Of a DNA stretch of 55,840 bases, positions 4,456-55,840 are shown one piece after another. Made by a program: the position numbers and the translations under genes. Each line of letters opens with the position of its first letter. Position 1 is the first letter of the stretch. Below the pieces are notes generated by a model. That model was not told the DNA's origin, searched no databases, and saw nothing but the letters and a program-made list of their open reading frames with translations. The DNA is from an uncultured Lachnospiraceae bacterium (GTDB lineage: Bacteria; Bacillota; Clostridia; Lachnospirales; Lachnospiraceae): the NCBI GenBank assembly GCA_902783665.1, contig CACZSG010000033.1, forward strand, positions 1 through 55,840. The letters are read 5' to 3'.

Positions 4456-5820
4456 ATGAGTTTCAACAAGGATTTTGTCTGGGGCGCCGCAACTGCATCC
4501 TACCAGGTCGAAGGCGCTGCCTTTGAGGATGGAAAGGGACTGAATATCTGGGATGTATTCAGCAGTGAAGAAGGTCACGTATATGAAGGCCATACCGGAG
4601 AGACCGGCTGCGACCAGTACCATCGTTATAAGGAAGATGTACAGCTGATGAAGGAGATGGGCATTCGTGCCTACCGGTTCTCCCTTTCATGGTCACGGAT
4701 TCTCCCGGAGGGGACCGGAAAGGTGAACGAGGCAGGGGTGGACTATTACAACCGGCTGATCGATGCCCTGCTTGAGGCGGGGATCGAGCCCTATGTGACA
4801 TTGTATCACTGGGATCTTCCCTATGCGCTTCATCTGCAGGGAGGCTGGATGAACCCTGCTTCTCCCGAATGGTTTTATGAGTACGCGGCCCTGTGTGCGC
4901 AGAGGTTTTCCGACAGGGTCAGGTTCTTCTTCACACTGAACGAGCCGCAGTGCATTCTTGCCCTCGGCTATGGGAACGGGGAGCATGCGCCCGGGCTTAA
5001 GACAGGACCGAACGATTATTTCCGCATCTGGTACAACCTTCTGAAAGTGCATGGAAGAGGTGTCCAGGCCCTCAGAGAAAACCAGAAACAGCCGCTGCAG
5101 GTGGGCATGGCTTCCTGCGGAGGGCTTTTCAGTCCGGCAGGGGAGAATGCTGCGGATGTTGAAGCGGCCAGAAGAGCCACTTTCGGCCTGATGGACGACA
5201 GCCTGTTTTCTGCCGCATGGGATGTGGCTTTCTGGGCAGATCCGCTCTTTTTCGGCAGGTATCCCGAAGATGTTCAGGAAAAATTCGGAAAGTATCTTCC
5301 TGCTATTACGGAAGAAGACCGGGCAGTCATCACACAGCCGCTGGACTTTTTCGGCATGAATATGTACAACTGTGTTCCCGTGCGGGCTGATGAAAAGGGA
5401 GATCCGGTCCGGGTAAAAAGATATGACGGATTCCCGCGGACCGCAAACGGGTGGCCCGCGACACCGGAGGTCACATACTGGGGACCGAAATTCCTGTATG
5501 AGAGGTATAAAAAGCCGGTCTATGTCACCGAGAACGGCCTGTCCTGCCATGACTGGGTCAGTGTGGACGGGAAAGTGCACGACCCGGGGCGGGAGGACTT
5601 CCTTCGCCGGTATCTGAAGGAACTGAAAAAGGGCATCAGCGACGGGACGGATGTCAGAGGCTATTTCGCCTGGTCGCTGCTGGACAATTTTGAGTGGAGC
5701 GCCGGCTATAAGGAAAGATTCGGTCTGATCTACGTGGATTACCGTACCGGCGAACGGATCCGGAAGGATTCATCCCGGCTGTACCAGCAGATCATCGCGG
5801 AGAATGGCGAAAACTTGTAA
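4456..5820 (+). CDS. GH1 beta-glucosidase
   Basis: FVWGAATASYQVEG, YRFSLSWSRI, catalytic TLNEP and YVTENG, WSLLDNFEW; ATG 4456 after AGGAGG. Confidence 0.93.
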   Translation: MSFNKDFVWGAATASYQVEGAAFEDGKGLNIWDVFSSEEGHVYEGHTGETGCDQYHRYKEDVQLMKEMGIRAYRFSLSWSRILPEGTGKVNEAGVDYYNRLIDALLEAGIEPYVTLYHWDLPYALHLQGGWMNPASPEWFYEYAALCAQRFSDRVRFFFTLNEPQCILALGYGNGEHAPGLKTGPNDYFRIWYNLLKVHGRGVQALRENQKQPLQVGMASCGGLFSPAGENAADVEAARRATFGLMDDSLFSAAWDVAFWADPLFFGRYPEDVQEKFGKYLPAITEEDRAVITQPLDFFGMNMYNCVPVRADEKGDPVRVKRYDGFPRTANGWPATPEVTYWGPKFLYERYKKPVYVTENGLSCHDWVSVDGKVHDPGREDFLRRYLKELKKGISDGTDVRGYFAWSLLDNFEWSAGYKERFGLIYVDYRTGERIRKDSSRLYQQIIAENGENL

Positions 5821-5874
5821 AATAAGGCCGGAAAACTGATAAAAACGGACCGGAAAACTTGTAAAAGCAGGCCG
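5809..5874 (+). repeat. 3 x 22-bp tandem repeat
   Basis: gaaaacttgtaaaataaggccg / gaaaactgataaaaacggaccg / gaaaacttgtaaaagcaggccg; the first unit contains the bgl stop codon. Confidence 0.85.
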
Positions 5875-5881
5875 GATCCGT

Positions 5882-39566: not shown

Positions 39567-39671
39567 AGCATATAAGAGCATGCTTACAGCATATATGATT
39601 ATGCTTACAACATATAAGATCATGCTTACAGAAGATAAGAGCATGTTGGCAGAATATAAGAGCATTTAAGA
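39567..39671 (+). repeat. ~5 x 21-bp tandem repeat
   Basis: agcatataagagcatgcttac / agcatatatgattatgcttac / aacatataagatcatgcttac / agaagataagagcatgttggc / agaatataagagcatttaaga. Confidence 0.9.
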
Positions 39672-44137: not shown

Positions 44138-44170
44138 AAGGATACTTTTCTGAACGGATGATAATTACAT

Positions 44171-44379
44171 TTGAAGGACGGCGGCAGATCCTGCCTGTGG
44201 CCTCCTCCAGATGCCCGTTGTCCTCTTCGAGAGGGCTCCGTCGCTGATTCGCGGCGCCCCTCCGAAAACGCGCTGCGCTTGGACGGTTCTCCGGGGCGCG
44301 CTGCTATCCTCGCCCTCTCTTCGAGTCCTGCCGACGCATCTTCCGGAGACCACAGGCAGGATCTGCCGCCTGACTTCAA
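44171..44379. mobile_element. Palindromic non-coding repeat element, copy A (MITE/REPIN-like)
   Basis: 30-bp imperfect terminal inverted repeats with 21-bp perfect core ggcggcagatcctgcctgtgg; homologous to 55415-55612 and 55756-55840. Mobility is inferred. Confidence 0.7.
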
Positions 44380-44512
44380 CAGCGAAAGTACTACAGTTTT
44401 TCATTCTGTTCGTAAGCTGATAAGGATTATATTCTCCAGTTTTCGTCTTTCATATAAATTTCGCAATTCATCATTATTGCATAGAATCTGACAAATACAG
44501 ACAGACGAATAC

Positions 44513-44619
44513 AAACAGCCATTATGTACATGGATATGTTCTTGTGAAACAGTACTATCATCATACAAAGGGTGATAGTACTGTTTTGGGATGACATATC
44601 ATTTACATAATGGCTGTTT
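44513..44619 (+). other. 107-nt long inverted repeat / hairpin
   Basis: aaacagccattatgta/tacataatggctgttt, gatatgt/acatatc, aaacagtactatca/tgatagtactgttt. Confidence 0.8.
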
Positions 44620-44740
44620 CTGCTGTGTCAGCTTATGCCGGGGCTTCTGTCGTCCAAGAATGTACAATTTCAAAACGGTTTATAAGTATGCAATTATGAA
44701 CAAAGAGCAGATGTGGCAAGAAACGCACGATGTCATTACC

Positions 44741-45704: not shown

Positions 45705-46385
45705 ATGGTGGAACAACTGACAATGGAAATGAACGAATTTCTCCCGCTCAGGGATGTGGTCTTCCAGACGCTGCGAAGCGCCATACTTAAGGGAAGCATC
45801 CTTCCGGGAGAACGCCTGATGGAAATCCACCTGGCAAATAAACTGGGCGTCAGCAGGACGCCTGTCCGGGAAGCCATCCGGATGCTGGAACAGGAAGGCC
45901 TGGTCGTCATGATACCGCGCAAAGGCGCCACAGTCGCCGAGATCACGGTCTCGGAACTGGTGGATGTCCTTGAGATCCGTATGACGCTGGAAGAGCTCGC
46001 CATGAAGCGCGCCTGCAGAAATGTCACGCCGGAATGGCTGGAAAAGCTGGAGGTCGCGGAACAGGAATTCCAGAAGGTGATCGCCGAGAACAATGATGTG
46101 GAAGCATGGGCCCTGGCGGACGAGAAATACCACAACGTCATCTACGAGATGACGGGAAACCGGCGGCTGATCCAGCTGCTGAGCAATCTCCGGGAACAGA
46201 TGTACCGCTACAGAATGGAATATCTGAAGAACAGGGATGCCCATGAGAGCCTTGTGGAAGAGCATAAAGAGATCATCCGGGCGCTGAAGCAGAAAGATGA
46301 AGTGGTAGGCATCAGGACTACGGATGAGCATATCAACAGGCAGAGAGAGAAGATCATCTCAATTCTTGAAGAGAAGAATCAGTGA
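45705..46385 (+). CDS. GntR (FCD) family transcriptional regulator
   Basis: 'PGERL.E..LA..LGVSRTPVREAI..LE.EGLV'. Confidence 0.93.
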   Translation: MVEQLTMEMNEFLPLRDVVFQTLRSAILKGSILPGERLMEIHLANKLGVSRTPVREAIRMLEQEGLVVMIPRKGATVAEITVSELVDVLEIRMTLEELAMKRACRNVTPEWLEKLEVAEQEFQKVIAENNDVEAWALADEKYHNVIYEMTGNRRLIQLLSNLREQMYRYRMEYLKNRDAHESLVEEHKEIIRALKQKDEVVGIRTTDEHINRQREKIISILEEKNQ

Positions 46386-46490
46386 GTCAGAGGGACGTTC
46401 ACCGTGACTCATTTTGCAAGCGGCCAGTCAGCAAAAGCTGACTGGCCGCTGTTCAAAATGAGTCACGGCGAACGTCCCTCTGACTCACTG
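46380..46490. repeat. 111-bp palindrome built from two inverted REP-like units
   Basis: cagtgagtcagagggacgttc..ccgtgactcattttg..gcggccagtcagc-aaaa-gctgactggccgc..caaaatgagtcacgg..gaacgtccctctgactcactg. Confidence 0.9.
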
Positions 46491-55292: not shown

Positions 55293-55321
55293 GAAGTCTT
55301 ATCGTTTCCAAACGCGCAATG

Positions 55322-55358
55322 CGCCGGAGACCGGGTTACCGGGATCCGGCGTTTTTTT
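55322..55358 (+). terminator. Rho-independent terminator of rplK-rplA
   Basis: cgccgga..ccgg-gtta-ccgg..tccggcg followed by T7. Confidence 0.85.
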
Positions 55359-55414
55359 CGTCTTTTCCTGTTTTTATTATTTTGGATATGTTTGAAAATA
55401 AAACATTCTTGTAC

Positions 55415-55612
55415 GCCAGCAGCCCCGGCATGCAGTTTCCTCCAGATGCGCGTTGTCCTCTTCGAGAGGGCTCCGTCGCTGATTCGCAGGCCCCTCCGAA
55501 AACGCGCTCCGCTTGGACGGTTCTCCGGGGCCTGCTGCTATCCTCGCCCTCTCTTCGAGTCCTGCCGAAGCATCTTCCGGAAACTGCAGGCCGGGTCTGC
55601 TGGCTGATTTCA
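55415..55612. mobile_element. Palindromic non-coding repeat element, copy B
   Basis: Core nearly identical to 44171-44379 but with different, still complementary outer arms gccagcagccccggcatgcagtttcc/ggaaactgcaggccgggtctgctggc. Confidence 0.7.
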
Positions 55613-55755
55613 TATATGAAAGAATTGTAGTTTCAAACTTTCGGCTTTTATGCAGATTCCGACAGTTCATAATTAATAAACAGAATCTGACAATATGAAC
55701 AGACCAAAATAAATACCAATACCAGCAGAATAAGCCGATCATCGACTTTTCGACT

Positions 55756-55840
55756 TTGAAGTCAGGCGGCAGATCCTGCCTGTGGTCTCCGGAAGATGCT
55801 TCGGCAGGACTCGAAGAGAGGGCGAGGATAGCAGCGCGCG
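55756..55840. mobile_element. Palindromic non-coding repeat element, copy C (inverted, truncated by window end)
   Basis: Reverse complement of the 3' ~85 nt of copy A, with one internal mismatch. Confidence 0.7.

Follow-up and report, generated by a model that had tools for sequence, protein, structure and literature searches.

A multicopy rod-forming repeat with a GNA-triloop tip in a ruminant-gut Lachnospiraceae genome, and its tip-sharing relatives in other phyla

The repeat in the window and in its genome

The window, by which we mean the whole stretch of DNA analysed (55,840 nt), is one entire contig (C33) of the 310-contig, 2.42-Mb genome of an uncultured Lachnospiraceae bacterium of the ruminant gut. 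Copy A of the repeat (44171..44379, folded strand minus; covariance model match 44168-44382, 261 bits) is a full rod with an R-type outer arm, flanked by acyltransferase and GHMP kinase genes. Copy B (55403..55616, minus strand, tip at 55500-55519) is a full rod with an L-type outer arm, downstream of rplA, the ribosomal protein L1 gene, and of a terminator-like hairpin with a T run (55320-55358) that follows rplA. Copy C (55754..55840, plus strand) is an inverted R-type rod that keeps only its last ~85 nt before the contig ends; it forms a heterodimer with B across a linker (55617..55753). An earlier note, made from the letters of the window alone, had described three copies of a ~200-bp element. 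Copies A and B match that description, arm and inner-arm sequences included, while the third is the inverted partial copy ended by the contig; the length holds for the rod itself but not for the unit around copy A, which extends to 44676.

In that unit, copy A is followed by a linker (44380..44511) homologous to linkers on contigs C44 and C287 and weakly to 55620-55713, by a central AT-rich hairpin of ~109 nt (44512..44620; nine full-length copies and one short copy folded) and, at the far end of the composite, by the remnant outer arm (44635..44676, plus strand; pair I5) of an L-type rod in inverted orientation. Such larger units, in the order L-type rod, linker, AT-rich ~105-119-nt hairpin and inverted R-type rod, are frequent in the genome, with composites on C212, C44, C72 and C186 and remnants on C104, C287, C230 and C268; the linker between B and C has no AT-rich hairpin. 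All four inverted pairs of this genome are alike in geometry. One geometry is likewise shared by all 12 close inverted pairs among 248 loci of the wider family treated below, some of which duplicate one locus. Same-strand tandem pairs also exist, four of them in a 40-copy chromosome (G520). Loci of Bacteroidota, Ralstonia and Ilyobacter (L067, L068, L125, L519-L521) have a T-rich/A-rich hairpin after the rod, perhaps a counterpart of the AT-rich hairpin described here.

Forty-four nhmmer matches merged into 32 rod loci in the 2.4 Mb, 10 of them near full length, so the multicopy character claimed from the window extends well beyond it. Contigs end within 12 nt of 11 of the 32. Independent metagenomes yielded the same rod variants, with a summed contig depth ~15-25 times that of the flanks, which roughly indicates a high copy number. 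The rods often have internal deletions, and these turn up again in other samples: the joint 44192 to 44368 was found in two metagenome runs, as was a 94-nt skip between 9-nt repeats, and the same 94-nt-shorter variant stands at the contig ends of C11, C98 and C12 of this genome. The R-type copies have 5-6-bp inverted termini, and composites retain their outer ends after loss of the rod.

Two kinds of other repeat were noticed in the window. Inverted arms of 37 bp, 97% complementary and 37 nt apart, lie at 46380-46490, overlapping the start of the ORF at 46404, and are unrelated to the rod; short tandem repeats with periods of 21 and 22 bp lie at 39569-39652 and 5809-5876.

Rod structure and covariation. 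The minus strand of the element folds into a single rod with arms of ~95 nt. From the outside in, the 10 near-full copies have stems of 26 (the outer stem), 6, 3, 8, 9 and 3 bp, separated in turn by a GGA/GGA loop, an asymmetric loop, a GAA/GAA loop, another asymmetric loop and another GGA/GGA loop; the last stem leads into the tip, which contains GC-GNA-GC. In copy A, with all features on the minus strand, the 5′ arm of the outer stem (44345..44370) pairs with its 3′ arm (44180..44205) through 26 bp, 14 of which covary. The GGA/GGA internal loops read in the earlier note were recovered as an outer loop (44342..44344 with 44206-44208), invariant in 10/10 copies, and an inner one (44290..44292 with 44261-44263). 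Between them lies the GAA/GAA loop (44320..44322 with 44226-44228), closed by a covarying CTC/GAG pair. The tip that defines the family, CGT-YCAA-GC-GNA-GC-GCG-TTT, occupies 44266..44285, with N at 44275. Copy A folds far better than its shuffles both as DNA (z of -6.7 and -6.8 on the two strands) and as RNA (-7.2 and -9.4), none of 200 shuffles being as good in either case.

That the stems differ between copies while staying paired is borne out by the alignment of the 10 near-full copies, in which both partners have changed in 19 of 57 pairs while 97% of cells remain paired, although these copies are kin and the structure was derived from them. No shuffle in 500 reached four of the covariation measures and four reached the fifth; controls with the structure slid along the alignment gave at most 52% pairing. 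Invariant columns make up 64/77 of the loops, 45/62 of the inner stems and only 18/52 of the outer stem. Columns 59 and 161 change from C-G to T-A in two of the 10 copies, which shows that the two CTC-GAA-GAG words pair mutually across the GAA/GAA loop. This covarying pair rules out two local CTC-GAA-GAG mini-hairpins of the GNA type. At the apex, by contrast, the variable base is indeed the N of a GNA triloop, as had been suggested: among 16 tips in this genome N is A in eight, G in four, T in two and C in one, one tip having an AAA loop, so that 15/16 are GNA and all four bases occur.

Arm-to-arm conversion can create covariation without selection. The mismatched loops persist, though conversion would erase them, so conversion alone is insufficient, and we infer that the loops of the rod are under selection.

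The tip family and its gain and loss at orthologous sites

BLAST found the core of the element in 0/62 relatives of the same genus, one of which has a one-mismatch tip that the covariance model left unscored, and core patterns specific to this genome had no match in viral or metagenome contigs. Matches in a sample of 400 genomes of the bacterial family pointed to the tip as the common feature. The 20-letter tip pattern occurs in at least 121 stretches of species genomes and at least 123 of metagenomes, the hosts among the matches listed being Selenomonas, Centipeda, Mitsuokella, Agathobacter, Lachnospira, Eubacterium, Bacteroidaceae and others. Over 128 distinct matches listed, N is A in 76, T in 26, C in 23 and G in 3; the G and A of GNA are fixed by the pattern itself. 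With the tip held fixed, and with no shuffled control, 107 of 118 family members fold with at least 45 enclosing pairs, at median arms of 92/95 nt; 256 G-T stand against 48 A-C. A model built from the Lachnospiraceae genome alone gave 18 full-length matches (E < 0.001) in 16 of 35 loci selected by the tip. The tip is common to subfamilies whose arms and ends differ.

Distribution is uneven. In the Selenomonas group, 22 of 26 genomes are positive, with 0-56 tip copies per genome, and single-contig chromosomes carry up to 56. Among the 400 genomes of the sample five have a tip match, two of these matches lying inside genes. A relaxed tip pattern matched 7/150 genomes of the phylum, two of which also match the reversed control. 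The relaxed search also gave another type of tip, which has a compensated pair and sits on similar rods. Intergenic rods with this variant tip occur in two Ralstonia replicons and one Ilyobacter replicon as well, so that it extends to Proteobacteria and Fusobacteria. The tip pattern has one match in viral contigs, which forms no long rod. Three settings drew our attention: a family copy within a cluster of tail tube and sheath genes, from a phage-tail-like or contractile system (L025:1417-1623); a variant-tip copy in a 23S-5S rRNA spacer (L499:1380-1590); and a different second rod, with GCGAAGC near both ends, that adjoins a family copy (L026:1750-1900).

Filled and empty sites were found among relatives in the Selenomonas group. 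At one intergenic site compared in 19 genomes (from 22 loci, after setting aside one without the anchor and two without the next gene), six are empty, with a 34-bp stop-RBS-start junction, five carry the rod on one strand and three on the other, one has an internally deleted rod and four have a short other sequence. That the rod stands in either orientation at this site favours independent gains. Comparing the 56-copy chromosome (G514) with relatives, 5 of 11 junction cases are clean inserts, of 238, 232, 223, 232 and 348 bp, the last being 231 bp with a nested 117-bp repeat; the remaining cases are internal deletions or ambiguous. Clean inserts often lie at a stop codon, and their ends are variable. 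The junction repeats, all from cross-species pairs, are microhomologies of 3-6 nt and varying length, which also fit deletion, so losses may account for some of the empty sites. A cleavage rule of the form C|T gave a good fit at only one of five junctions and was dropped. The comparison of filled and empty sites proposed earlier gave both states in these relatives and, in the five clean cross-species inserts, no clear target duplication of fixed length.

For the window's own lineage, eight metagenome runs gave no clean empty site for two loci of this genome; the joints in them show internal deletions, and one metagenome contig diverges ahead of the copy on C131. No empty site was identified for copy A, since the orthologues of its upstream gene (13 loci) lack the rod but are non-syntenic. 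The element is thus likely to be mobile, on the filled and empty sites of the Selenomonas group rather than on any in its own lineage.

Several other repeats share these surroundings. At the site after prfB (L350-L371), several Selenomonas-group genomes have another repeat, with GGAAGCACTGATAAA-type inverted ends, inserted at the same TAAGGA junction; G518 and G527 (L367, L369), which have no tip, carry other long structured intergenic repeats there. A repeat of ~117 bp nests inside rods of the Selenomonas group.

Orientation and the search for a mobiliser

Relative to transcription, the GNA strand shows no bias in G514, with 24 copies sense and 24 antisense in tandem contexts, 4 convergent and 4 divergent. 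Other samples of the family gave antisense to sense ratios of 28:18 and 22:20, with convergent sites exceeding divergent ones (11:3 and 23:9), and in the Lachnospiraceae genome itself the gene reads into the non-GNA strand at 13 of 19 copies (13:6). Relative to replication, the GNA strand lies on the leading-strand template in 40/56 copies of G514 (p 0.002), 27/40 of G520 (p 0.04) and 18/23 of G479 (p 0.01), but 7/15 in G521, where the bias is absent. The sum over the four chromosomes, 92/134, rests on replichores drawn from sampled GC skew and includes orthologous copies that are not independent. A replichore bias without a transcription bias suggests action at the DNA level; the bias may reflect insertion, or faster loss from the lagging template.

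The motifs agree with this. The GCGNAGC mini-hairpin is exceptionally stable as DNA, related RNA hairpins being less so, according to part of PMC13037366, and the motifs already described in DNA include GGA/GGA and adenine zippers (a section of PMC11014236); the G-T excess and the GA-rich loops do not discriminate DNA from RNA. Taken together, orientation and DNA-type motifs make it likely that the element acts at the DNA level. Of the ssDNA (or RNA) structure put forward in the earlier note, the strand-asymmetric fold is upheld, and orientation favours its DNA form.

This genome has two Y1 genes. One is the TnpA gene of an IS605-type element (G000:C59:11747-13900), which is followed by a TnpB-like gene; the element has a hairpin at its left end, and its ends differ from the rod. 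The other is a RAYT/TIRYT-like gene (G000:C92:5870-7000) with a C-terminal extension resembling that of subclass 2.1.2 as outlined in part of PMC6006769. It is flanked by its own ~22-nt inverted repeat, which is unrelated to the rod; the arms of this repeat have 77 matches spread over about 40 contigs, with a single match on the window's contig. Screens for HUH motifs and atypical codon use over ~2,100 predicted genes, with candidates judged by eye from the top 77 and top 130 listed, gave only these two Y1 genes as mobile candidates.

The rod tip is absent from all 18 Y1 loci compared (this genome's two and 16 others), and there is no Y1 gene in the 856 kb around 248 rod loci. Y1_Tnp had no match in five of 10 copy-rich genomes of the Selenomonas group and Mitsuokella (G514, G520, G521, G479, G480), three of which are single-contig chromosomes with 56, 40 and 15 copies, nor in two of five further genomes; RAYT was above cut-off in 0/5 genomes. 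No transposase was found among 140 genes neighbouring rods, which are housekeeping genes, or beside the 56 copies of G514 (24 neighbours by Pfam, the rest judged from sequence), and no neighbour gene recurs. Reverse transcriptase is present in 4/26 genomes and not in G514. The suggested link to RAYT or to an IS200/IS605 TnpA is therefore unsupported, no Y1 gene lying near these rods and three copy-rich chromosomes having no Y1_Tnp match. Nor did an HUH/RAYT gene flanked by the rod's arms, which the earlier note had proposed to look for, emerge from the RAYT-like gene or the 18 Y1 loci. Because no Y1 linkage was found, we infer an HUH step from likeness.

Likeness to known systems and competing explanations

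The element works like REP/REPIN but departs from it in size, foot and RAYT. As with enterobacterial REP/BIME and Pseudomonas REPIN, the rods are intergenic, multicopy, imperfect palindromes found in both orientations, with conserved mismatches within a variable stem. The REP tip YAA-GC-GNA-GC-GC of Cronobacter, Klebsiella and Citrobacter, as given in Table 1 of PMC2817692, is the rod tip. Inverted heterodimers with a linker are known for REP in portions of PMC3333891 and PMC3733652 and are formed by rods too, though by a minority in Selenomonas; the latter source in part also covers transposase-less repeat families. However, the rod is ~190-210 nt, with inserts of 223-238 bp, whereas a REP unit is 20-40 nt; no foot comparable to GTAG/GTGG/GGAG is conserved in rod subfamilies, GGAG standing 5′ of the tip only in this genome's subfamily. 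REP has a flanking RAYT and rods do not; rods bear several GNA/GNA loops and in Selenomonas stand mostly as single copies.

CGTC-tagged repeats (Di Nocera 2013) are, like the rods, REP-like with no dedicated transposase. In 9/10 copies here the stem has a CGTC at its 3′ foot, though it is not conserved in other subfamilies; their 8-9-bp stems and 4-5-nt loops are unlike rods. Closer in some respects is MRSC-65-2 (Narunsky 2024, PMC11109978), which parts of that paper present as one long covarying stem with dozens of copies per genome in diverse phyla, possibly acting at the DNA level, next to 250 mobile or repeat candidates. Compared by description, its UYCCGG repeat is absent from three rod subfamily consensuses and occurs once in copy A. 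It is conceivable, if somewhat improbable, that the rod is already among the MRSC motifs of that collection.

The plasmid sites ssoA/U/W, ssi and PAS are, like the rod, strand-specific ssDNA rods of 150-250 nt with a mini-hairpin tip; the rod, unlike them, is chromosomal and multicopy, with no plasmid match. Derivatives of IS200/IS605 share with it strand-specific hairpins and an apparent lack of a fixed duplication. In the R-type copies here the GNA strand starts with TTGAA and ends with TCAA, which may resemble IS200/IS605 cleavage words. The rod differs in having no subterminal end hairpins, in ends that are not conserved family-wide and in copy-rich genomes without TnpA; its replichore bias, on the assumption that GNA marks the active strand, runs against the prediction of IS608-type peel-and-paste, which would put that strand on the lagging-strand template. 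Rfam at the gathering threshold gave no family match for the window, the check that the earlier note had asked of novelty, and none but rRNA for 20 variant-tip loci; by E-value only sub-threshold miRNA-type noise appeared. The rod family is undescribed in the literature searched, mostly open-access journals: the relevant portions of PMC5737381, PMC6429828, PMC8040213 and bioRxiv 10.64898/2026.09.22.753630 do not describe it, and the tip words are absent from eight supplementary files of PMC8040213 and two of PMC6006769.

We favour, with a probability of about one half, a non-autonomous mobile repeat that is predicted to fold as an ssDNA rod and to be copied in trans by an ssDNA strand-transfer enzyme, probably HUH-like. 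The minus (GNA) strand would fold once the DNA is unwound, and a protein would read the tip and purine-rich loops much as TnpA-REP reads the REP bulge, cutting at loosely defined sites at the rod foot; such loosely placed cuts would explain the variable ends. TnpA-REP itself depends on a mismatch in the stem, and the sites at which it cuts vary, as set out in a section of PMC3333891. Inverted heterodimers, as in BIME or REPIN, would place a GNA copy on both strands, template-switch conversion would keep the arms matched while selection maintains the loops, and hairpin-assisted deletion would lead to decay of copies. The mobiliser may be too divergent for Pfam, unlinked, or resident only transiently. 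Tentatively, and with clearly less confidence, we raise a broader proposal, in which ssDNA rods of ~230 bp would make up a superfamily across phyla that has so far gone undescribed. They might spread without any known transposase class, putatively by a novel ssDNA-cutting enzyme or by host priming machinery, and might be kept mainly on the leading-strand template as re-priming or restart sites.

REP/REPIN biology so far rests on the RAYT enzymes of Proteobacteria. Here a REP-type tip caps a rod five times longer, which has naturally occurring GNA triloops and loops of the GGA/GAA zipper type; its hosts belong to Bacillota, Bacteroidota, Fusobacteriota and Betaproteobacteria, and sites are gained and lost in genomes without Y1 or RT. 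Two questions thereby become testable: by what route non-autonomous palindromes can spread when no transposase is resident, and whether selection acts in bacterial chromosomes on the non-canonical ssDNA motifs known from NMR.

A rather doubtful alternative, though the one that survives best, is a priming signal read by the host: an sso/ssi/PAS-like structure that RNA polymerase, primase or PriA would recognise. It would need no dedicated transposase, spreading through the host's own replication and recombination, and might assist re-priming of the leading template. The replichore bias without transcription bias, the almost constant rod length, the identical tip across phyla and the copy-rich complete chromosomes without Y1 or RT all agree with it, and the variant tip presumably resembles the ColE1 primosome assembly site. 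Precedents are ssoA, an orientation-dependent ssDNA structure of ~160 nt primed by RNA polymerase (part of PMC5703833), and the SSB-resistant mini-hairpins at phage and plasmid priming sites (part of PMC13037366). Yet 72,556 plasmids and 50,697 phages held no full-length match, the distribution is patchy (the five of 400 family genomes, with two matches within genes), ~30% of copies are on the other strand, and a priming signal alone leaves insertion unexplained.

Unlikely is an element acting as RNA, whether in transcript stability, processing, termination or movement through an RNA intermediate. GA-rich symmetric loops occur in RNA too, the RNA fold is strong (z -9.4), most copies come after stop codons, and 13/19 copies here share one polarity relative to the upstream gene. 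Against these stand the even 24:24 polarity of G514, both orientations at one site, a triloop with a free N that suits DNA, the scarcity of RT (4/26 genomes, none in G514) and the lack of a match to any Rfam ribozyme or other family. Copy B and those on C131, C31 and C222 are already preceded by a terminator-like hairpin, and because several copies come after their own terminator, a terminator role is improbable.

Less probable again is a classical DDE MITE whose inverted ends were extended into a long palindrome, its covariation being unselected arm-to-arm conversion. The 5-6-bp inverted termini of R-type copies, the outer ends that composites keep after rod loss and the 3-6-nt repeats at some junctions would suit it, but short inverted ends are confined to this genome while ends vary across the family, leaving no constant TIR; the five clean inserts, all from cross-species pairs, gave no clear fixed-length duplication, and conservation is highest at tip and loops, not at the ends.

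An assembly artefact or neutral palindrome, to which the contig ends at 11/32 loci could point, is refuted by the ~15-25-fold depth and the same variants in independent metagenomes and by single-contig chromosomes with up to 56 copies; rather, rods account for many of the places where assemblies from gut and rumen break into contigs.
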